Assembly: GCA_024137785.1 (NCBI GenBank)
Contig: JAHRHZ010000049.1
Location: 124,001-188,000, forward strand
Direction of reading: 5' to 3'
DNA: 64,000 nucleotides
Source of the DNA: Ginglymostoma cirratum
Taxonomy: Eukaryota
Both the position numbers and the translations under genes were made by a program. The notes beneath the pieces were generated by a model. It had not been told where the DNA came from. It saw only the letters and a list, made by a program, of their open reading frames with translations, and ran no database searches. Shown here piece after piece: positions 3,530 to 38,800 of this stretch (within the stretch, counting starts at the first letter, position 1; each line of letters opens with the position of its first letter).

Positions 3530-4000
3530 CCCTCACGCGGTGCCATTGTTCCCGTCAGATCCGGGCCATATTCGAAATCCCGGCAGCTCCGCATAGACCA
3601 CGCGCCGCCGGTCTTCGTGGCCTGAGAGTAACACCGAGCCGGTAACCAAACCCCACCGCCTTAAATCGAAATCTGATGTTGGCCCTCAAACTCACCTGAA
3701 CTCCCACCGCCCAAATTGAACGCCATAGTGCAGCGCGCCGGTCCGTCACGACAGTCTGATCCGGGTGGAGTGAAAACATCACCATTAAAACGTTCCGCCG
3801 CTCCTCTTGCACCCGGAACTTTTAGTCAGGTCACTAAAGTTGTTGATTCATTTCGCTTGCTGATCGGATTCGACAGGATTGCAATGAAGCAGCAAGCGAA
3901 AAACTTTCATCCGCACAGCCATTGCTTCCTCGTATCTGTAACATGACTGATGCGTAGGAGTGGGAGATGTTGTCACAAAGAAGGATGGCGTGAGGCGTTT
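3530..4000 (-). promoter_or_regulatory. CpG island / housekeeping promoter of NUP54
   Basis: Visibly CpG-rich against a CpG-poor background; ETS-like CCGGAA near 3813; spans the ATG exon. Confidence 0.7.
3696..3726 (-). CDS. NUP54: Nucleoporin 54, first coding exon (MAFNLGGGSS); rest of gene lies outside the window to the left
   Basis: Minus strand reads cactATG GCG TTC AAT TTG GGC GGT GGG AGT TCA G|GTGAGT. MAFN(F/L)G start and phase-1 donor are typical of NUP54; lies in a CpG island; NUP54 is the known downstream neighbour of SCARB2 on the same strand. Confidence 0.8.
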
Positions 4001-9099: not shown

Positions 9100-9240
9100 G
9101 GCTGTTGCCCTTTGCACACCTCCTGTTCACCGAGAGCCTGCCTTCCTCAGTGCTGATCAGGTGACAGGATAATAAACAATAAATAGCTGAAAGCCCTTCC
9201 TACACTGGTTCACAAACCTTGCACTGAAACAGTAGACAGC
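9100..9240 (+). promoter_or_regulatory. Putative LEAP2 proximal promoter and 5' UTR
   Basis: HNF4-like DR1 TGCCCTTTGCAC 9106-9117, forkhead-like AATAAACA 9171-9178, TATA-like ATAAATAG 9179-9186, about 55 nt before the ATG. Confidence 0.5.
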
Positions 9241-9306
9241 ATGAGGGCTAAGCTGAACCAGGTGCTTGCTGTTGCAGGGATGGTTTTATTACTTTCCACC
9301 ATGACG
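9241..9306 (+). CDS. LEAP2: LEAP2-family peptide, exon 1 (signal peptide MRAKLNQVLAVAGMVLLLSTMT)
   Basis: cagcATG start, hydrophobic signal-like peptide, ACG|GTAAGG phase-0 donor; joins in frame to 15002. Confidence 0.75.
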
Positions 9307-9540
9307 GTAAGGAACTGTTTTTAAAATGAAAATATGATTCTCACACCTCGATAAACTCTCATTTTAATAACTTAGAAAACAACAGGCGAAGAAAGAATAC
9401 ACATTGTCCGAATAGGAAAACAAACTGTGGCAGATAGGAAACCTCAAAGTATGTCTCAGAAAGTTGGACTTGCAGTTAGGCAGAATATCTGATGCTGCCG
9501 TGCGGGACCAAAAATAGGATAAGGTTTTATTTGCAAGCTA

Positions 9541-9735
9541 AAAACCTAAAGAACTGCAGGTGCTGTAAATCAGGAAGAAAAACAGAAGTTGCTGGAAAAG
9601 CCCAACAGGTCTGGCAGCATCTGTGAGGAGAAAATCTGAGGAAGGGTCACCGGACCTGAAACGTTAACTCTTGAGTTTTCTTCACAGATGTTGCCAGACC
9701 TGCTGAGCTTTTCGAGCAACTTCTGTTTTTGTTAG
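9541..9735. mobile_element. Palindromic Penelope-derived element with hammerhead core
   Basis: Inverted arms; CTGAGGA at 9636 then GAAACGTT; perfect 13-bp flanking duplication tatttgcaagcta at 9528-9540 and 9736-9748. Confidence 0.8.
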
Positions 9736-10295
9736 TATTTGCAAGCTATTGGGGGTTCGTTGCAAAAGAAAACCCCATGTAGTAAGCTGCGAAGGTCTGG
9801 CGTGAATGAGGTAGACACGGGAGGCCACGACCCTCAAATCTAATCTTCTTTTCATGAATATATAACTGTGACTCTTTTAAAGAATTGACGTTTTCCCACG
9901 CCAGAAGGAAGGATTCGTACAATATTTTGGTGGCAAACTAAAACCTGTAAAAAGATAAAAATCTTCAGAGAGGGATAAAGACATGCAGAAATCGAGCTGT
10001 TGATGTTTCCGTCATAGTAACGACGTTTTGCATTTTAAAAGAAATATAATCGTTCAATTATGTTTTTCAGGAATACAATGCCGCTTCAAGGCAGCTTAGC
10101 GATATTGAGTAAACTCGTATGGGAACATTTGAGTGTCGTTAAAAATGCTTATTTCACGGAATTACCCCATTTTCAAATGTATTGCTAAAACTCTACCAGG
10201 TTACGTGATCAAGGAGTGCTCTCAAATAGGGAGAGGGAAAAAATACACATTATCTTAATAGAACACATTTCTCAAACGAGTTATGGTGGCATTTT

Positions 10296-10335
10296 GAGTT
10301 CTGAGGAGGGGTCACTCGACCCGAAACGTTAACTC
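10296..10335 (+). ncRNA. Minimal hammerhead ribozyme motif in a Penelope-derived repeat (repeat runs to about 10400)
   Basis: Stem I GAGTT/AACTC, core CTGAGGA, stem II GGGTC-ACTC-GACCC, GAAA, palindromic AACGTT stem III, GUU cleavage triplet. Confidence 0.7.
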
Positions 10336-10904
10336 TGCTCCCTGTCCCTCTGGACATGCTGCCAGACCTGCTGAGCTTTTCCAGCAATTTGTTTTGTTTT
10401 TTTTCCTGTGTTTTAATTTGAAGTTTAATTGTCGCAATCGCTCTCGAAGTGAACCTCCAGCCGAAGAAACGTAAATAGCGAAAAAGTAACAAGGACTTCC
10501 TCCGTACGTCGAAGAAAATTCTTCTGATTCTGAAACGGGGGAGTATAATTGCTGTTTTTAAAATAGGGTCTAGGAATGACCAGTTCTGGCAACATTTGTG
10601 GAGAGACAAAAGGATGTGTTCAGGTCCACCAAGTATTCCCTGTATTTTCTTTTTTATTAGGACACTATTTTTTAAAAAAAAAAACTCTTTGCCTTACAAA
10701 CAGCATTCTCACGAGAATCTAAAAGGCGAACTGTCCGACATGAATTTACACTTTATATTAAGTGCCGGTTTTGTCCAGGAAACCGGGTATTTCACGGATT
10801 CAGTTGTGCGTTGCACAATTTGGATAGCGATAGCGTTACGAAAGGTACTGAATCACAAAGTCTCTGTCGCCCTACTGGACCACAGGGCTACTCAACAGAG
10901 AGCC

Positions 10905-11062
10905 GCCTGGTGGTATTTAACGTGAGGGTCAACCCGCTCGAGGCAAGGAGAGAGCTCGCTAACGACAGCCCGGCAGGGTAACCTCAGCAGGTGCGGAAAT
11001 TCAAACCATGCAGTCAGCATGGCTCTACATCATAAACCAGCCATTCAGCCAACTGAGCTAAC
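10905..11062 (-). mobile_element. tRNA-derived SINE fragment
   Basis: Minus strand begins ggttagctcagttggctg... followed by a B-box-like ggtttgaatttcc. Confidence 0.55.
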
Positions 11063-11399
11063 CTCCAGCAAGTCCTACATGAGGGGGGACAGTGCTCGGT
11101 CTACGCCTTAGGGAACAAAGCAGGCAAGCCCTTGGAGTGTCACTGGGAGAGCACTTCAGTGATAGTGGGCGGGAATAAAGGGTTTAAATTGAAAGAAGGG
11201 TTGGTTTCATTATGGTGTCTAGCCAAAGTGGACTGGAAGCAGCTACTTATCGGAAAATCCATTTTGGAGCGGTGAGAATCTTTCAAAAAAAAATGGTGGA
11301 AATGCAGGGTTAATATGTTCCTTGTAAAAGGTGAAGACTAGGACCAAATATTCTCGAACGCTAGACAGAAGAATACATAGGATTAGACGAGGAAAAGAG

Positions 11400-12450
11400 A
11401 AGCTTAAATGGGACTAGATTAGTTTAGGATATCGGGTCAGCATGGACGAGTTGGGCCAAAGGGTCTGTTTCCATGCTGTACATCTATACACCTATCTGAC
11501 TAGATGTGGATAAGAGTACTGTAGTTTATTATAAGACTTTTAACAAGGTCCCACATGGGACACTATTCAAGGTGGTAAGATCCCATGGGATCCAAAGGGA
11601 CTTTGGGGTAGGAGATAGAGGGTGACAGTCAGACACTGCTTTTGAGTGGAAACCTGTATCTAGTGGCATACCTAGGGTTGGGTGCTGGGTCACTTGCTGT
11701 TTTGTAGTGTACATTAATTATCGAGGCATGAATTTAAGAAGCTTGATCAGGAAGTTTGCAGATGACAAGTCATTTGGTAGTGTAATAGCGAGGCGGAAAA
11801 CCATAGGGTACAGGCCAGACATAGAGGGGGCTGGTCTGATGGGGAATAGTAAATGGAATTTAATTCTGCAAAGGGAGATGTGGTGCTCTTTGTCTACTCC
11901 TTTGCCTTGCTTGTCCTCCCAATGAATGGTAGGAACCCAGGAAGTGCAGATGATCAGAGGATCCACAGTTTATATATCTGCAAATCTTGGAAGACAACTG
12001 GACAGATAGATAAGATGATATTTTGGAAATTTACCTTCATTAGTCAAAGCGTTGAATATAAAGCAGGAAGGCTATAATGGAGCTGTATAAAACATGAGGT
12101 GATGGCTGGAGTAAGGATGTGACTGTGCTAACAAGGTTGCAGAGAAAATTCAGCAGGATGCTACCTCAGCTAGAGTGTTTCAGCAATGAAGAGAAACTAG
12201 ATAGTCTTGAGGTCATTTAACTTAGATCAGAGAAAGCTGGGTGTGGGGATGGGGTCTGCTTGAGGTGTACAGAATTGAGGGGAAGAAACTGTTCCCGTTA
12301 GCAGAGGGATAAATAACCAGGGATTATAGGTGGAAGGTAAAAGGACAGGAGGTTTAGAGACGATTTACAGAGGAATTGCTTTCACTCAATGAGTGGTGCA
12401 TATTGGAAACTCACTGCCTGAAAGTGTGGATGGACATTTACGTATTTACT
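11400..12450 (+). mobile_element. Old CR1 fragments
   Basis: FNKVPHG, KFADD and CR1 3'-end remnants. Confidence 0.7.
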
Positions 12451-12569
12451 AATTACTAAGCATGGTTTAGCAGGAAAGTATTGATGAATGTTCCAGCAGC
12501 CTAAAGGTTAAAACTTTATTCTGAAAATGAAGTTAAGGCTTTAGTCTTTCCTATGTTAGACCATAAATT

Positions 12570-13060
12570 CATAGAACTGTACAGCGTGGAAATAGACTCT
12601 TCAGTCCAAGTTGTCCATGCCGACCAGATATCCTTAATTAATCTAATCCCATTTGCCAGCATTTAACCCATTTCTCTCTAAACCATTCCTATTCATAGAC
12701 CCACAGAGATACCTTTTAAATGTTGTAATTGTACCAGCCTCTACCACTTCATCTGGCAGCTCATTCCATACACACACCACCCTGCGTGAAAACATTGCCC
12801 CTTTAGGTCCCTTTTAAAATCTTTCTCTTCTCTCCTATGTGCTCTATTTTTGGACTCCCTCATTCTGGGGAAAAGACCTTGGCTAATAACCCTATCCATT
12901 TCCCTCATGATTTTATAAACCTTTATAAGGTTTATAAACCTCAGCCTCCGCTGCTCCAGGGAAAATAGCCCCAGCTTATTCAGCCTCTCCCTGTAGCTCA
13001 AATCTTCCAATCCTGGCAACATCCTTGTAAATCTTTTCTGAGCACTTTCAACTTTCACAC
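12570..13060 (-). mobile_element. CR1 3' end
   Basis: QKRFTRMLPGLEDLSYRERLNKLGLFSLEQRRLR. Confidence 0.9.
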
Positions 13061-13239
13061 TAGGGGAATAAAGTTTACAGAAGTTAATAACAGCTAGAGT
13101 TAAACTCAGTTACTGGATGTATGGACTTTACATGAAATGTACAATTAGGTCCGGTAGTGGAGCAGTTTGAGCAAAAGGTCCTTTAAGACCTTGCATTTAT
13201 ACATTGGGACAAATGTATAAAAACAGAAACATGGACAGA

Positions 13240-13800
13240 GAGGAACAGGAGTCGGTCATTCAGTCCATTGAGCCTGCTTCACCACTTAATACAAACATGG
13301 CTGTTGAACACTTCAATACATTTTAACCCATCTACCCCCATAACCTTGTATGCCATTGATAATCAAAAAATTATTAACCTCTAATTTAAACATAAAGATT
13401 GAGTTTCTGCAGCCCTCTGGGACAGAGAATTTCAAAGATTCACCATTGTCTGATTAAAAATATTCTCCTAATCTCAGTCCAAAATGGTATCCCTCTTAAA
13501 ATGTGGTCCTTGGTTCTAGACTCCCAAGCAGATTTTTTTTTTTAAAAATAAAAACTTACCTGCAACTACCCTAAATATCCTTAAGTATTTTCTAAGTTTC
13601 AATCAAAACTTGTCTTATTCTGCAGGACTTGAGAATACGGGCCCTGATTGCCCAAACACACTACACAGGATATGCTTACTATCATGGGAACAAGTCTGGT
13701 GAACGTTTCTCTCGGTCTATGGCAATAATATCTTTTCCAAAACAGAGGCAAAACTGCACACAGTACTCCAGATGCTGTCTATCCAAACTCCTGCACAACT
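13240..13800 (-). mobile_element. Old CR1 3' end
   Basis: Reverse complement of LEYCVQF and LWNSLSQRAAE segments plus tail. Confidence 0.7.
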
Positions 13801-14371
13801 TAAAATGGAGAGGAAATAAAAATAAGGATATTTAACAAAACCAGAAGTCTTGAGAAAGCAAGGTCAAAAAGGCAGAGACATTTTAGGAATTGAATTCATG
13901 GGAATGTATAGGTGAAATCCTAGCTTCCTTTTAATAAACAATTTAACTACCTCTTCCCTTCCTGAAGTTTTTCTCCCCTTTATTTTCCATGCCCAATTGA
14001 TTAAATCACCAGGGTTAATAGACAACAAGTTAGCCATCTTCTTAAGCACTTTGGATGAGGTGAGGTAAGGCAACATTACTTTATATACAAAGCCTAATGA
14101 TGGCCCAGAGACCAACTAGATGAAACCAATTCTCAAACTGGTCCAAAATAAAATGAAGAATTGTGGATGTTGGAGATCTGAAACAAGCAAAAACAGAAAT
14201 GCTGGAATCATTGAACTTTAAAATGTTTACTGTTTTCCCTCTACAGATTGTGCCAGACCCGCTGAGTTTCTCAAACTGGACCTTCGGATAGAAAGTAAAC
14301 AAACAGTCTGCTGGGTTGCCAAGTTTACCATTAGTTGCATGAACTCTGTGATATGGCTTATGATATGGCTC

Positions 14372-14705
14372 GGGGGAGGTGATGGCCTAGTGGTATTATC
14401 ACTGGACCGTTAACCCAGAGACCCAGATAATGTTGTAAGGACCCAGGTTTGAATCCCACCATGGCAGATGGTTGGAGTCTGTATTTTAATAAAATCTGGA
14501 AGTCTAATGTTGACCATGGTTCCATCAGATTGTCAAAAAAACCCATGCCGTTTAGGGAAGGAAAGTGTCTTCCTTACCTGGTCTGGCCTACTTGTGATTC
14601 CAGACCCACAGCAATGTGGTTGATTGTTAACTGCCCTCTGGGCAATTAGAGTTGAGCATTAAATGCTGGCCTAACCAGCGACACCTCATTCCATGAATGA
14701 ATAAT
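14372..14705 (+). mobile_element. tRNA-headed SINE (about 330 bp family)
   Basis: ggggaggtgatggcctagtggtatt head, B-box ggtttgaatccc, atgaatga tail; homologous to 60241-60568 and 30205-30538. Confidence 0.85.
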
Positions 14706-15001
14706 TTAAAAAGAAATTGAAAGCTTTCAAGCATGTTCATATGGAAAGTGCCTGTTAACCAGATAAATCAAGATTTGCCACTCAGGACAGTGATATTAAA
14801 ATCTGATAAATGGTCATAATCTGTTGAATCGTTTCCATGATTTCTCAACGGTCAAAGTGAAGGCAATTACTTGTCAGAAAATTAATTTGTGAACTGACAA
14901 ATATGCAGTTTAAAGTCAATTGAAAAAATTTGTCATGTAGAGCTCATTTGATTAGAACAATTAAGCATTGACACTAAAGTATGTATAACAATTATTTTTA
15001 G

Positions 15002-15153
15002 GTGCAGTTGGCTCCAGTTTCTGACAACCAGAAACCATTAGTTCAGCGGATCAAGAGATCAATGCTTTGGCGCTGGATTACTCAGAGACCCACTGGTGCA
15101 ACTTGCAGGGTGGATGCTGAATGCATCACCAATTACTGTGCAATTCAGGATAC
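15002..15153 (+). CDS. LEAP2: LEAP2-family peptide, exon 2 (propeptide, RIKR furin site, most of the mature peptide)
   Basis: ttttag| acceptor; VQLAPVSDNQKPLVQRIKR-SMLWRWITQRPTGATCRVDAECITNYCAIQD; fits LEAP2 RPxGAxCRxxxECxTxxC; AC|GTATGT phase-2 donor. Confidence 0.9.
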
Positions 15154-16551
15154 GTATGTATTCAAATACCATTCCTTTGATTGCAACTGTCTTATCAAAA
15201 CAAAATGTTTTAGTAAGATCCCAAGAAACCTCTGGTTCTAACACACTCGGGAGACATATTATTTACAAAGCATAACTTCAGCAGTATTACAACAAATGGC
15301 AGTTTTGTCAGTAAATTAATTTTATTACCATGGCACAAGGTTTAGAGTATGTTTTTAAACTTGGCATCAAGAAAATACAACATAGGAGAAACAAAGAAAA
15401 TCTTGGGTTACAAAATCAATTTTGTTCTTGACATTTGGGGAAAAAAGGTCTTGTTGATCCCCAGATGTTAACAAGTCATAGACTGAAACATTCAGACTAT
15501 ACTGCACACAGTTTTACACTGATTCTTTCTACACCTTGGCAATAGGAGCTTAAGTGATTCATTCACATTCATTATGGTTTGATTTTGATGAACTACCAGT
15601 ATTTAAAACTGAGTAGGAAATCTATCCTTCATCTTACATGCTGGAGGAGTTTAACCATTACAGGAATTAGTTTGCTTTTCTACAGCATGTTCCTGGAAAA
15701 TGAAGACTTTGTTTTTACCTGTCCCAACACAAAATTCTGACCTATGACCATGAAGCAATATACTGTACTTCTGCTCAGATGAGGCATAGTACATTTTTCC
15801 ACTTCAGGGACACTCATTTAGGGCAATAGGATGATATGCATTGAAAGTGAAATGTTGGAGTTTGTTAAAATTATATATATTTGCATATCCTATTTTACAT
15901 TGTCTTGCAGATCTATTCCAGCTAGACAGCCTGGTAGCACCAAACTTAAAGGTTATGGTAAATGTTGGATAATATTGGAGTTCTGCAATCATAGTTGGAG
16001 CACAGTCAATACTCTACCTGTTTTCGCCATCTGGAAGGACACGCTGTTTGATACGATTCATCAATTATTGGGATATGCAGTGACACTAATTCATATACAC
16101 TTCACTCCAAACTCCTGTAATAGTATTACTGTCTGCTAGCCACCTTCAGTCAATAGATACATTGAAATTCCTACAGCTTCATGCAATACAAGTTTGATGT
16201 TAAAGCCAATCGCAGAATTAGGGTTTGGGCTATTTGCTGGTCATGCAAGCTTAATGCCAAAATAGGACACAAAGCTATCTTATGGATCAATGTCGACCGC
16301 AAATCAAGTCATTGCTTGCTGTTCATCTTGCAAACTTATATAAACACCTAAGACCACCACTTTCCATCCAAATACAGGTGAAATTTACTAAATAATCCAG
16401 AGTGTGCTAAGAATTAAATGAACCAATCAATTTAAGATAAATTAAAGTTCACATGACTCACTGAAGTTTGCTAGAAGATACAGGCAATCAAAACACAGGG
16501 CACTGTCCCTTGCAAGCTAAGTAAGGTTCTCAGCAACCAATTTTTTTTCTT

Positions 16552-16875
16552 ATCATAGAATCCATACATTGTGCGGAAGCAGGCCAAATCGACCCATCAA
16601 GTCCACACGACCCCTCCAAACAGCGGTCCACCCAGACCCACCCCTAACCCTATCCCAGTAACCCTGCATTTCCCACAACTAACCCACTTAGCCTACACAT
16701 CCCTGGTCTCGACAGACAATTTAGCATTGCCAATCCACCTAAACCCCACATGTTTGGGCTGTGGGAGGAAACTAGAACATAGAGGAAACCCAAACAGACA
16801 CAGGGAGAATGTACAAACTCCACACAGTCACCCAAGGCTGGAATTGAACCCATGTCTCTGGTGCTGTGAGGCACC
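16552..16875 (-). mobile_element. HE1-like V-SINE
   Basis: Reverse complement has tgcctcacagcaccag...ggttcaattccagcc...gtgtggagtttgtacattctccc V-domain and a CR1-type tail. Confidence 0.85.
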
Positions 16876-17229
16876 AGACAATACAAATTATTGCCCCCTT
16901 TGAAATCTGGTATGGCACCCCTCCTGATGATTGCAGGTCAAAAGTCTTCTACAGGAAGTTTGTTTTCAGCAATACCATCGACTGTTCCATACTATCAACT
17001 ATTTGTATCTCCTCTCTGTCTCGCTCATTCCTTTCGATTAATAGCTTTTCTCATGTTTCCTCCCTGGATTAGTATACCAGTAAGTATTCCAATAAATAGA
17101 CATTTGAGGTATATGCTGAAGCACTGATAACCAGCCATGAGAATATATAGAATAGCTTGCACTTATAGAGTCGGTTGAAATACAATGTGAACCAATACAA
17201 TTTGTGAATGAGTATTTCTCCCGTTACAG

Positions 17230-17266
17230 GAATTCAATATGTTCGTTACAAACATTCTCAGCCTAA
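17230..17266 (+). CDS. LEAP2: LEAP2-family peptide, exon 3 (NSICSLQTFSA-stop)
   Basis: Strong acceptor tttctcccgttacag|; phase 2; 37-nt coding part supplies the fourth Cys in a CSL context, as in the LEAP2 terminal exon. Confidence 0.85.
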
Positions 17267-17555
17267 GCCAGTGGACACGAAGGTCCAAACATCATTATCT
17301 TGAAGTAAAGAAACCACGCTTTGGAAACTAATCATTTTCACTCTTCCAAAAGTGATCTGTGGATTCAAAACTACTTCACTTTCCTGAAAGTCAAGGAAAT
17401 CTCTAGCCACAGAAAAAGAATACTGACGTCATAAAATCACCTCAGGTCACTGACAGTGATTAAGTGTGATTCTAACACATACTGTGGAAATTGCTGATTT
17501 GCCACAACCTACTGGATGATCTTGTACTGTGAAACTGTACAAGCATATTTGTATG

Positions 17556-17589
17556 ATTAAAGTGCATGAATTAAATAGCATATTTTATT
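17556..17589. terminator. Opposed candidate polyadenylation signals (LEAP2 plus; SCARB2 minus)
   Basis: ATTAAA at 17556 and 17570 on plus; TTTATT (AATAAA on minus) at 17584-17589. Confidence 0.45.
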
Positions 17590-19142
17590 AATATTTTGGA
17601 AATAACATTACGATTACATACATTCTGCAGTGCCAAACATGGGTCAGTACATCATAAACTGCTTGAATGAAGTGTTGTGCTTATATTTTTTTTAAAAAAT
17701 CAAAAAAATTATCTAAAACATCTTAATCCATATTAAAATATATACAGAGTGCACTACTTGGCATACAGGGTGAAGGTGAGTAAGGCCTGTCCTAAACAGA
17801 AATTTACAGTTGCTTTCTTGAAAATTTAGATCATATTTTGGACAGTGCTTAGCATCACATTATTGGCCTAAACGTAGAAGGCCAAGTTCAGAAATTTAAC
17901 CATGACATACCATTGGTAAGTACAGTTGCTGGGACAGATTCAAGGGTGGATGTTAACTTGATTATTAACCACCCTGGTAAATGAAGAGCTAACATGTTAA
18001 CAACTTCTACAAAATATTAATTTGATACATAGTGCAACTTGGATCCTTAAATTGCTTTTGTTCGTGCACTAAATTTTCGGTATGCCACAATTCATTGGTA
18101 AAACTCTCTACATTACACTGAATATGCCAGTGTTAATGTGAATAGTAAACTGCCCACAATTCCACTAGTGTTTTCACCAGAATACAAAACACGGGAATAA
18201 GAGGGAGGGATGTGTAAATAACAATATGTCCTTCCTCATATCTTTTCTATTACATTCTGAATTAAGTCATATACAACTGAGCGGATGATGGCTGGTGTGT
18301 AATTAAAGACAAACAGTACACAGAGACACCAACAAAATCCAAATTTATACATAGAAACAGAATATTGTTTGGCACGGACATTCCTCATTAATTTGACTAC
18401 CTTCTTTCTCCCCCAAATATGAGCAAAACCATTTTTTCCACCTGATCTCATCAATACTTTGATATTATTGACTGTAGCATCCTAACTCTCTTTTCTAATA
18501 TCACAAGAGGTGTATTTACAAAAAATACTTTCCAGTCCATATGGCAAGTGCAGAAGTAAATATAAATGCAGCTAAGGGATGAGGGAAGGATGTTATTTAG
18601 GAATAAGTGTTCTCATCTGAACAAACTAGGTCTCTCTAAACAGAAGAAAACACCCAACCTGTAACCACGATCATTAAAGTCAAATAAGCTAAGTTACATA
18701 TACTTCAATATCTACACAAATAAAACTTATTCAAAACCTCACAGTGCCAAATACAACATTGCTATGACAGCACACTTCTTCATAACTAACACAGATCTTA
18801 AGCAAATGCTTGGTTACAGAAGTTCTGCCTTTACAAACTAAAGTCATAGTGGTCAACACTGCAGAACTGCAATAGGTAGTTCATTTAAAAATCATAATTA
18901 TTACTTAAATTTATAAAAGCTGCATTTGATACCTGAAGTAGTGTTATATACCAAAGTATAATTTCGCAAGCTCAACCTTGAAAACTTATTAGTTATGTAA
19001 GTAGAATTTAAATTATAGGTAACAGATTGTGCTCTGTAAGACTTTGAAACCTGTGGCAATTCTAGAATATGTCAAAGAAAACAAACGTGCATCCTTTGCA
19101 TTGTTTCTCTCAACCAGGCTGCAGAAATACTCGCATGAAGTT

Positions 19143-19184
19143 TCAAGATGGTTTCAAAAGGGGTGTCCTTTCTGCCTCTGATGC
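19143..19184 (-). CDS. SCARB2: SCARB2/LIMP-2 exon 12 (ASEAERTPLLKPS-stop)
   Basis: aaacag| acceptor; ERTPLL acidic dileucine lysosomal sorting motif; TGA. Confidence 0.93.
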   Translation of the reverse strand, partial: ASEAERTPLLKPS

Positions 19185-19669
19185 CTGTTTATGAAAAAAA
19201 TATATTTCATTATAAAAATACAGAATAACGCAAGGGAAGTATGCACCATTGACCATTCCAACAAACTCCTGAGGAAGGTAAATGCTTCCTCACTGACATA
19301 TCCGCTCTCTTTTCCTTCCAAAAACCCATGAACTAAGGATAAATCACTCAGTAATTTACGTCATCACAGCTTACCTCTTCACTCAGCTCATTTGCGGATG
19401 ACCTCTCCTCTTGCCATCCTACTTTGGCCTCTCTAGTCTTAAGATTTGATCACAAGTAAGGTCATACCTAATTTCTTCCTTGTATTTGATACCACTCACA
19501 TCCCCTTTCTAATGCATGCTTTTCTACATCTCTTCCCAAATAAACTTTTCAGCAAGTTACTGACCATTGCACTTTAAAACTACCATCTGGACTTTTGTTA
19601 TGCATTTTACTGTCTTTGTAATTTGTCAATTTGTTCTATCATTCCCTCATCTACACATTTGAAGTACAG

Positions 19670-22705: not shown

Positions 22706-22864
22706 CTCATTAACCTCATTGCGATTAGTGCACACAAGTATGACAAAGATCAAACCAAAGAGAATCCCCAAACCCATTATCATAAATGGAATCACAGTTA
22801 CTACTTTGGACTGCAGGAGCATGGAATTCAACTTAGCAGCTGATGCATTGTCAATCAAAACACT
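22706..22864 (-). CDS. SCARB2: SCARB2 exon 11 (C-terminal transmembrane helix)
   Basis: 159 nt, cag|...|gtatgt; SVLIDNASAAKLNSMLLQSKVVTVIPFMIMGLGILFGLIFVILVCTNRNEVNE. Confidence 0.95.
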
Positions 22865-35833: not shown

Positions 35834-38800
35834 CAACAGCTTTCAGTCCTCCACTCTGTTCGGGGTTCGGGAATATTTATGGGCCGGATTTAGATCGCCA
35901 GAACCTACAGGACTGAGTGGGGCTGCTGTGGTTACATGGTATCACATGGTACAGAGAACTTAAAAAAAAAAAAGGTTTGCAACTTGGTTGACCGACAGAG
36001 GCCACACACATAGACGCATGGAGAATAAGACAGGTGAATAGAGCATGGGAAAAGTAAAAGTAAAATCCAAATATGACGAACTTGGCTAGGAATGGCATCA
36101 GCTAATACTGCCAGGAGGGATCAGGGTGGCTGGGGATGCTGGTAAAATAAAGGAAGGAGGTCTGTGCTGAGAGACCTGCGCCCGCCATCGGCGACAGACG
36201 ACCCCTAGAAAGAGCTAACCAGTGTTTAAATCTGCAGAGTGGGACACTACACTGGAGACTGTCTGAAATGCAAGTCCAATCCTTGCCACTAGAGGGACCC
36301 CAGCCCATATCACGAAATAACATATGGCCAAGTGAGGCAATGAGATGGTTATACCACTGCTCACAACGACAACTTCAGGCCTCTCTAACATGGAGGGGTG
36401 ATGCCAGGAGGGCTGGAACAGGAAGACCCATGGTGGACTGTGGGTTGGCTTCCAACCCTATCACTTTTCTTTGTGACACAGGAGGATCCCAAACCACCCT
36501 AAACACATCCACTTTACATCAACATAGCTGGAAAACAGAAGCACAAATTATTCTGACTGGGTTTAAAGGACATTCCCAAGCAGGATAGGTAACTACTCCT
36601 TTAATTGTCCAGATTGGATCGGTACTCTTACAGCACTGGGTTGTCCTACTACGACTACCACAGCAGGAAGGACGTATTTTGGGAAGTGACTACATGGTAA
36701 GAGCCAGTTTTGTTTTGATCTGGTAAACCGTATGAAGTGGCAAATGCCAGGAATTGAACGAGGAACAGTCTGTCACTGCAATTCCAGTTGGCCATTACAG
36801 GGAACAGGTTTGCACAGTGGGAGAAATGTGGAGAAACCCTACAGATGTGAGCTTTGCTCTAACGATCCAGGCCATACTAATAGAGAACCAAAATGCTTTT
36901 GCCAAAAGTAAACACAATTGCCGGAGGATGCAGGGGTTTTTCTTTTACATCCAAGGATGAGACTTGAAGCCACAGAAACAATACGGGTTTCTCAAACAAG
37001 GAGGAGACATCGAAAAAGCAATCCAGAGTCTAGTAACTCAGAGTACTACGACCTGTCACGTCCAGAAATAATTCTACAATTTGGCCCATTAAAAAGCCAA
37101 ACAGAAACTGGCAATTGACTACAGCGAACTAAGTAAAGTCACACCTATGGGTAGGTCCTAGCCCTGAAATTATAATTAAACAAAGCAAGTTAGCACAATG
37201 GTTTACAGTGTTAGACATCAACAATGGATTTTGGTCAATCCCTTTGACCAAGGGGTGTCAGTATAAATTTGCATTTACCTTTCAAGGACGGCAATGTACG
37301 TGGATAGCTTTACCACAGGGATTCAACAATTCCTCATGAATTTTTCATGAATGGTTAAGCAATGGGTTAGGGATTTTTCTAGGCCAGACTGTTTGATACA
37401 ATATGTCAATGACTTCTTTTGACAAACAAGAATGGAATGTGAGCATTACCAGTTCCTAAATGAGTTATTGCAACTATTAAAAGGAACTTGGGTTGAAAGT
37501 GAACCCAAAAAAGCTTCAGACAATGAGGCAAGAAGTGAGTTACTTAGGAGTAGTCTTAACACTGGGGGGAAAAAGTAGAAGAACAACAAATTGAAACAGC
37601 AGTTGAACTTTCCATCCCTACAGATTTGAAGGGATTAAGGTCATTTTTAGGCTTAATTGAGTATTGTAGAGACCTTATTGATAGTTTTGCCACCAACATA
37701 GCACCATTAATGATGTTATTAGAGAAAAATGCCCCACGAGAATGGAAGCCAGGACACACACAAGCAATAACAGCTTTGAAGTAGGGCTTGGTGAGCACTC
37801 CTGTCCTGTTTACCCCGAACCATTCTCCTTAGAGGTGGCTCCAACAGATTCCACAACATCAGTGGCCTTATTACAGGTGGTGTACGGTCAGTTAAGACCA
37901 GTAGCCTATGCCTCGCGCAGGCTTGTGCCAACACAGCATGTGAAAAGTATTTGTTGGCCTTCTGGGTGGTAGAATATTTTACCTACATTGTAAGGTGGAG
38001 CCTGTTGACAATTTTGACAGAATATACACCCATTCAAATGCTGCTGGATACACGCATCAACAATGGCGCAGTAAGCCAAAATAGAATTGCCAGATGGACA
38101 CTGACCACTGTAGTTACAGGAGAGAAATATAGCAGTAAAAGGGGTGAAAACCACTACTTAGTTAGGCAACAACTTAGTGTATCAAGGAGAAAAACATGAG
38201 TGCCAAGTTATGATACAAATGGTCCTGTGGGATCATTTGCTATCAAATCAAAAAAGGAAGGAATACGGGTAATTAACAAAATTTTTTTTTTAAAAATTTG
38301 TTAACTGCTCTTCATCTGTGCAGATAGGACAATAAAAGATGCCAAAGAAACAAACCACTCCTCGATCCCACCACAAAAAGAAATTGGTTCGGAAGAAACG
38401 GATAGCTAGAGTCCGAAGAAAATTGGGAGCAGGACTTGGATGAACTAGTAGGAAAAATTGAGAATTTAGACTTAAAATAAATGTAAGAAACAAGGTGAAA
38501 ATAAGAGAAGTTACACTTGTGTATTACAGGCCTCGTGCAAGATGAAGGGAATAACATATCTCATTGCAACCGGGTTAACCGTGACAGGGGCCACAGTCAG
38601 ACTCGCTCTGGAACTCTAACTTTAGTTCTTATTTTTCTTATACTATTAATATCTGTAAGGTGATGCAACTTTTTTTTTCCCTTTGTCTATCTATTTTGTA
38701 TCAAACGTATTTACCCCAGTACTGTGTGCCTAAAATGGTACCATGTGGGGGGATATTGTAAACTTTTTACCACACTCCTCTACTTCTGTACTTGAGTACA

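Follow-up and report, generated by a model that had tools for sequence, protein, structure and literature searches.

The stretch examined here (the window) comprises 64,000 nucleotides of contig JAHRHZ010000049.1 from the Ginglymostoma cirratum assembly GCA_024137785.1 (positions 124,001 to 188,000, forward strand), and positions below are counted from its first letter unless a contig is named. Its plus strand carries a three-exon gene of the LEAP2 (liver-expressed antimicrobial peptide 2) family, which belongs to the LEAP-2C subtype; SCARB2 lies on the minus strand. The structure of the shark gene, its splicing, its poly(A) site, its family and its subtype are established, with very little room left for doubt. 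An earlier note on this DNA had placed exons at 9241-9306, 15002-15153 and 17230-17266, joined by GT-AG introns in phases 0 and 2 into an 84-residue precursor. This model was borne out: when the boundaries were shifted by up to 2 nucleotides, just one of 625 combinations kept the GT-AG rule at every one of the four sites, and its product is the 84-residue precursor.

Gene structure and transcripts

A motif scan located a TATA-like box (TAAATA, 9180-9185, plus strand) 61 nucleotides 5' of the ATG, which may have a promoter role. Coding exon 1 (9241-9306, 66 nucleotides), delimited by sequence and splice sites, encodes residues 1-22, a predicted signal peptide with a hydrophobic stretch whose hydropathy peaks at 2.8. 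Intron 1 (9307-15001, 5695 nucleotides, phase 0) is repeat-rich. Exon 2 (15002-15153, 152 nucleotides), supported by the PF07359 match and by alignments, encodes the propeptide, the furin site, the mature peptide through Cys3 and a loop extension of four codons. The furin-type motif RIKR (residues 38-41, 15047-15058) puts the predicted start of the mature peptide, SMLWRW, at 15059. After intron 2 (15154-17229, 2076 nucleotides, phase 2), exon 3 (17230-17575) contributes 37 coding nucleotides with Cys4 and a TAA stop codon (17264-17266), followed by the 3' untranslated region (UTR), in which an ATTAAA signal (17556-17561) precedes a poly(A) site near 17575. All these features lie on the plus strand. 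Between Cys3 and Cys4 the LEAP-2C of cartilaginous fishes has four extra residues, typical of this group (15139-15153 in the window); exon 3 supplies three residues before Cys4, which suggests that the end of exon 2 encodes the additional ones.

The two junctions that the earlier note had named for an RNA-seq check were both found. About 24% of the poly(A) RNA run X10 was read, and in this part junction 9306/15002 was spanned by 42 reads (31 starts) and junction 15153/17230 by 51 reads (38 starts); the libraries were unstranded and the tissues of the runs not labelled. Among the five runs available as contigs, X3 contained both joints and X1 and X4 the second one, and neither was present in X6 and X7. 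In a contig of X4 a poly(A) tail is attached to 17575, a position 14 nucleotides past ATTAAA where the genome has no run of A. We also noticed a minor alternative acceptor in intron 2 near 15911 (15153-15911; 3 reads, 2 starts). In Cetorhinus, the LEAP-2C protein model runs through intron 2 and leaves exon 3 unused.

The 3' UTR of SCARB2 is long and antisense to exon 3 and to most of intron 2 of LEAP-2C. Coverage of this region in X6 and X7 was considered as LEAP-2C expression and rejected, because its source is the SCARB2 3' UTR and neither run has LEAP-2C joints. The same overlap could be taken to mean that the exons are a chance open reading frame (ORF) or a pseudogene whose RNA comes from SCARB2, which would explain the X6 and X7 coverage. 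This possibility is refuted by the plus-strand GT-AG junction reads; the gene's own poly(A) site, its intact frame and its orthologues across jawed vertebrates also speak against it, and we give it practically no weight.

Family, subtype and distribution

The earlier assignment to the LEAP2 family agreed with the Pfam hidden Markov model PF07359 (LEAP-2), against which exon 2 alone scored 34.6 bits (cut-off 27, E 1.7e-8). A search of PDB with a profile of close relatives gave human LEAP2 (2L1Q, E 2.8e-8) as the sole match. Several hallmarks of LEAP2 are present, namely three spliced exons, an RXXR motif with predicted cleavage and four conserved cysteines, as anticipated by the earlier note; R38 and R41 of the motif are invariant in all 46 aligned LEAP2s. 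The cysteine spacing is 5, 4 and 8, the last being usually 4 in the family. The mature peptide starts with S-x-x-W-R-W without Met1, which is the start of the LEAP-2C subtype, and the cluster of the sturgeon relative includes AWM12222.1, a record that bears the name "isoform C". The teleost members of the shark gene's clade have the motifs LLWRWNT and NTLKPVG, which are also encoded by published primers for LEAP-2C (PMC9986249). By sequence comparison, the shark gene is LEAP-2C, grouping with sturgeon "isoform C" and with teleost, coelacanth, caecilian and axolotl proteins.

The earlier note had described the gene as hidden and easy for annotation to miss. This did not hold for related sharks, in which RefSeq contains the same protein: the whale shark record XP_048449204.1 is identical to the Ginglymostoma precursor at 79 of 84 residues (five substitutions), the bamboo shark records XP_072406809.1 and XP_043551556.1 at 69 and 68 of 84, respectively, and the elephant shark orthologue is XP_007895115.1 (V9LG19). 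The RefSeq proteins of carpet and elephant sharks called "liver-expressed antimicrobial peptide 2-like" are likewise 84-85 residues long, with the same start motif and the eight-residue Cys3-Cys4 loop. The whale, bamboo and elephant shark records are named "LEAP2" or "LEAP2-like" with no subtype given, and we found no functional study of them. Further sharks and a sawfish also have an annotated LEAP-2C orthologue. The gene is thus an ordinary orthologue of a named subtype, already in the databases for close relatives.

Ray-finned LEAP-2C (Acipenser dabryanus AWM12222.1, trout GQ870279, grass carp OQ026323) has in common with the shark gene the three exons, the RXXR motif, the S-x-x-W-R-W start without Met, the cysteine spacings 5 and 4, and membership in one clade. 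Its mature peptides are 38-39 residues long with a Cys3-Cys4 spacing of 4, whereas the shark peptide has 43 residues and a spacing of 8, and NTLK or NSMK stands in place of shark ITQR. The net charge (K+R-D-E) also differs, being 0 in the shark, +1 in sturgeon and +3 to +5 in teleost LEAP-2C. Human LEAP2 (2L1Q), an antagonist of the ghrelin receptor GHSR encoded at 5q31.1 (PMC11722547), has in common with the shark peptide PF07359, three exons, the furin site, the Trp-Arg pair and the core R-P-x-G-A-x-C-R...E-C-I-T; tetrapod LEAP2, unlike shark LEAP-2C, starts with MTPFWR, is cationic and forms a separate clade. Teleost LEAP-2A and LEAP-2B and the NTPFW-type gene of sharks belong to the same family and have the same exon 2 layout, but their clade is separate from LEAP-2C (support 100/99).

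A wider protein search gave 91 matches: 49 were of the S-x-x-W-R-W type (S-type), and the other 42 were LEAP2s of frogs, birds and tuatara. The 44 named S-type proteins (five were unnamed) came from cartilaginous fishes, bichir, sturgeons, gar, bowfin, teleosts, coelacanth, a caecilian and axolotl, and none of these 44, obtained by word-seeded searches and from 50% representatives, was from an amniote or a frog. A follow-up homologue search gave 66 matches, 54 of them new; 36 of the new ones were examined and names were obtained for 10. In line with the absence from mammals proposed in the earlier note, these homologue searches found no mammalian LEAP-2C, and the gene was probably lost in amniotes.

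The trees were built from hand-picked rows, with redundant birds and partial models removed, and had 81-82 usable columns. The first tree comprised 51 rows, and a branch with support 100/99 separated its 36 S-type rows from tetrapod LEAP2. The second, of 43 rows, also took in sequences of lamprey, of the LEAP-2A/B type and of the third type; here the 19 S-type rows stayed together (92/84). Both clades agreed with the earlier view of the gene as LEAP-2C, a paralogue of the MTPFW hormone; the reach of the clade to caecilian and axolotl goes beyond that reading. The inner branching of the S-type clade matches the species tree. The sequence data indicate that LEAP-2C predates the split of cartilaginous and bony fishes.

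Mature LEAP-2C carries a net charge of -2 to +1 in seven cartilaginous fishes other than Ginglymostoma; among amphibians and those bony fishes that are not teleosts, the range is 0 to +3. Values of +3 to +5 were obtained both for 19 LEAP-2C sequences of teleosts and for 14 LEAP2 sequences of tetrapods. Residues S42, W45, W47, I48 and R51 are invariant in all 15 non-teleost LEAP-2C sequences, from chimaera to caecilian. A further conservation profile was discarded, since the pattern behind it already prescribed S1, W4, W6 and the cysteines. The AlphaFold model of the whale shark orthologue has a helix at 2-24 and a confident small core (pLDDT, the predicted local distance difference score, 87-89).

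Neighbouring genes, paralogues and origin

The identity of SCARB2 on the minus strand was confirmed by its CD36 domain, by matches to LIMP-2 structures (E 3e-12), by the joint of its last exon and by a dileucine tail. The last exon with the long 3' UTR (15304-19184, minus strand) was defined by the CT..AC joint 19184/22706 in X10, X4 and X7, by translation and by hexamers, its strand being deduced from splice sites and signals since the libraries were unstranded. The penultimate exon (22706-22864, minus strand) encodes the C-terminal transmembrane helix, as indicated by the RNA joint and the translation. Contigs of X7 covered 15304-19186 with no LEAP-2C joint. The last exon contains two AATAAA signals, at 17584 and 15321; the one at 17584 would end SCARB2 almost base to base with the LEAP-2C poly(A) site. 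The long 3' UTR form occurred without LEAP-2C joints in X6 and X7, and both genes were present in X10 and X4.

The location between NUP54 and SCARB2 given in the earlier note stood for SCARB2 and, on the other side, for Nup54-domain exons, which lie on the minus strand about 41-46 kb left of the window (G000:C49:78-83 kb). A minus-strand segment at 3696-3726 of the window, head-to-head with LEAP-2C and 5.5 kb from it, is by its N-terminus the likely first coding exon of NUP54. Elsewhere, a SCARB2 intron (36100-38200) contains, as judged by eye, degraded protease, reverse-transcriptase and RNase H-like ORF pieces of a long terminal repeat element, and fragments of long interspersed nuclear elements are numerous across the whole window.

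The genome searches scored top candidates only. Among 40 candidates scored with PF07359, exactly two matches were above the cut-off; a weak match on contig C111 was rejected for having no LEAP2 features. The second LEAP2 gene, with an RVSR site and an NTPFWR start (G000:C267:22797990-22798202, minus strand), lies 17 kb upstream of a PHKA gene, whose best match was the muscle isoform, the sole alpha chain matched in PDB. A claudin-like gene, presumably TMEM47-like, lies about 70 kb from this second LEAP2, which could serve GHSR. The NTPFW-type protein of sawshark (Pristiophorus UniRef100_UPI00398F50C3) joined the LEAP-2A/B-type group, not tetrapod LEAP2 (100/99, on a long branch); the label A-type has been used for that group (PMC12427373). 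A third elasmobranch type, found in white shark (Carcharodon) and the stingrays Hypanus and Hemitrygon, starts with MTPLWRW, that is, with Met-Thr-Pro followed by the W-R-W motif, and by its sequence may be the orthologue of tetrapod LEAP2. It was not found in the Ginglymostoma assembly by Pfam and protein searches of the top candidates, and all five matches to the exact pattern were non-coding chance or repeat matches.

Human LEAP2 adjoins SHROOM1, SEPT8 and AFF4, and the SEPT11, SEPT6 and SHROOM-SEPT8 blocks are paralogues that go back to the genome duplications of early vertebrates. On the LEAP-2C contig, a SHROOM gene lies at 0.86 Mb and a septin gene best matching SEPT11 at 0.99 Mb (0.7-0.9 Mb from LEAP-2C); on contig C289, SHROOM stands beside SEPT8 in the same order, and on C267, SEPT6 lies 33 Mb from the second LEAP2. 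Because their contigs carry SEPT11 and SEPT6, LEAP-2C and the second, LEAP2A-like gene are suggested to be twins from whole-genome duplication, and we infer that LEAP-2C probably arose in the early vertebrate genome duplications and was lost in amniotes. Two findings weigh against this origin: a distance of 33 Mb makes SEPT6 a weak link, and neither LEAP2 nor AFF was found among the top candidates in 600 kb beside the SHROOM-SEPT8 block, of which 10.5% was unreadable. There, 21 long ORFs matched no Pfam family above cut-off. No LEAP2 was found downstream of the three AFF genes in 80, 60 and 60 kb, and no fourth AFF gene among the top candidates scored in the assembly. A single-gene duplication with relocation in early jawed vertebrates would fit the different immediate neighbours (NUP54 and SCARB2 versus PHKA and the claudin-like gene) as well as the missing LEAP2 by the SHROOM-SEPT8 block, but both LEAP2 genes are on contigs with different SEPT6-group paralogues, and elasmobranchs have three LEAP2 types where the lamprey sequences found were of one type. 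We consider such a duplication rather doubtful.

Proposed function and meaning

By analogy with the LEAP2 family, which has a signal peptide, a furin cut and two disulfides (PMC11722547), the shark precursor would very probably be secreted and cut by furin at RIKR, giving a 43-residue peptide with Cys1-Cys3 and Cys2-Cys4 disulfides. Its conserved, exposed S-M/L-x-W-R-W N-terminus would be the receptor-binding part, like residues 1-8 of LEAP2, which carry key receptor-binding determinants (PMC11722547). The target would be a receptor other than the ghrelin receptor, with membrane killing at most a side activity in sharks; for these last steps the chances seem about even. In croaker, a second LEAP2 ("LEAP2B"), without Met1 and with Leu for Phe4, was reported to show almost no binding to five GHSRs, including those of human, coelacanth, zebrafish and croaker, and teleost LEAP2A to bind GHSR (bioRxiv 10.1101/2022.09.21.508860). 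Because croaker is listed with LEAP2A and LEAP2C (PMC11149183), this second LEAP2 is probably LEAP-2C. A net charge of 0, together with the lack of GHSR binding by the probable croaker orthologue, makes a receptor other than GHSR the likelier target. The croaker result also lends some indirect published backing to the different receptor that the earlier note allowed for. On the whole, we slightly favour the view that this is an expressed and spliced shark LEAP-2C orthologue whose predicted secreted, furin-cut peptide signals via such a receptor.

Several observations weigh against this view. The predicted signal-peptide cut is atypical, because a Leu occupies position 25, at which a small residue stands in several relatives. 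Support for the clade in the broader tree (92/84) is under the level at which branches were starred, on about 80 usable columns. Fold searches with the whale shark model gave no significant match, 2L1Q being a weak one (Z 3.0, root-mean-square deviation 2.4, 32 residues aligned) tied with other small disulfide folds. The identity of croaker "LEAP2B" with LEAP-2C was deduced from the text of the paper. Finally, the shark peptide may still bind GHSR, because its N-terminus (WITQRP) differs from that of teleosts (WNSMKP) and keeps Trp5 and Arg6.

Bacterial killing by such peptides usually needs cationic character. With a net charge of 0, the "purely antimicrobial" role allowed by the earlier note is disfavoured for the shark peptide. 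On a broader alternative, LEAP-2C would serve sharks and teleosts alike chiefly in innate immunity, as an antimicrobial or immunomodulatory peptide: the two Trp and the Trp-Arg pair of the N-terminus can anchor in membranes (PMC11722547), and teleost LEAP-2C kills bacteria in vitro, a finding known in print for teleost LEAP-2C only. Against it stand, besides the charge (0 here and -2 to +1 in other cartilaginous fishes), the reported drop of trout LEAP-2C mRNA in the gut after infection and a mature N-terminus much more conserved than is usual, by general knowledge, for pathogen-facing peptides, and we regard this role as unlikely. A still less probable reading makes the peptide a second antagonist or inverse agonist of GHSR in sharks, one that would duplicate the part of the NTPFW-type gene. 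Compared with the GHSR-binding start (Met1-Thr-Pro-Phe/Leu-Trp-Arg), it lacks Met1, within the residues that carry the key determinants, and has Ser-Met for Thr-Pro, and the probable croaker orthologue did not bind the four GHSRs named above. The earlier statement that the GHSR-binding start is lacking was nevertheless correct in part only: the peptide retains the equivalents of Trp5 and Arg6, and its Leu in place of Phe4 is also found in the GHSR-binding zebrafish LEAP2. The core of the peptide is close to that of tetrapod LEAP2. A secreted ligand of another receptor is thus the function we favour over both.

A more far-reaching proposal, which we put forward tentatively and think more likely wrong than right, is that jawed vertebrates had three LEAP2 ohnologues. 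LEAP-2C, in the NUP54-SCARB2-SHROOM-SEPT11 block, would be an uncharacterised peptide hormone with its own receptor, retained in lineages that range from sharks to salamanders and caecilians but not in amniotes, which would have lost it. Teleost LEAP-2A and LEAP-2B would derive from a third copy (the shark NTPFW type in the PHKA/SEPT6 block), as paralogues and not orthologues of human LEAP2. A search of the literature outside subscription journals, the home of most fish LEAP2 work, gave no paper on a LEAP-2C from sharks, none on the NUP54-SCARB2 locus and none on ohnologues of LEAP2. A mention of LEAP-2B/2C "in Chondrichthyes" (PMC11767564) was considered as a shark report and rejected, as the paper cited there concerns chondrostean sturgeons.

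LEAP-2A, -2B and -2C have been treated as a teleost expansion from the fish genome duplications (PMC11767564, PMC9986249). The orthologues in sharks, chimaera, coelacanth, caecilian and axolotl date LEAP-2C to a time before cartilaginous and bony fishes diverged. The peptide is a strongly conserved sister of a drug-target hormone, has no net charge and probably does not bind GHSR; this makes it a candidate ligand for receptor de-orphaning, and comparing it with LEAP2 is an obvious way to learn how the latter blocks GHSR. The worthwhile question is the evolution and function of this ancient, uncharged and probably GHSR-inactive sister of LEAP2.

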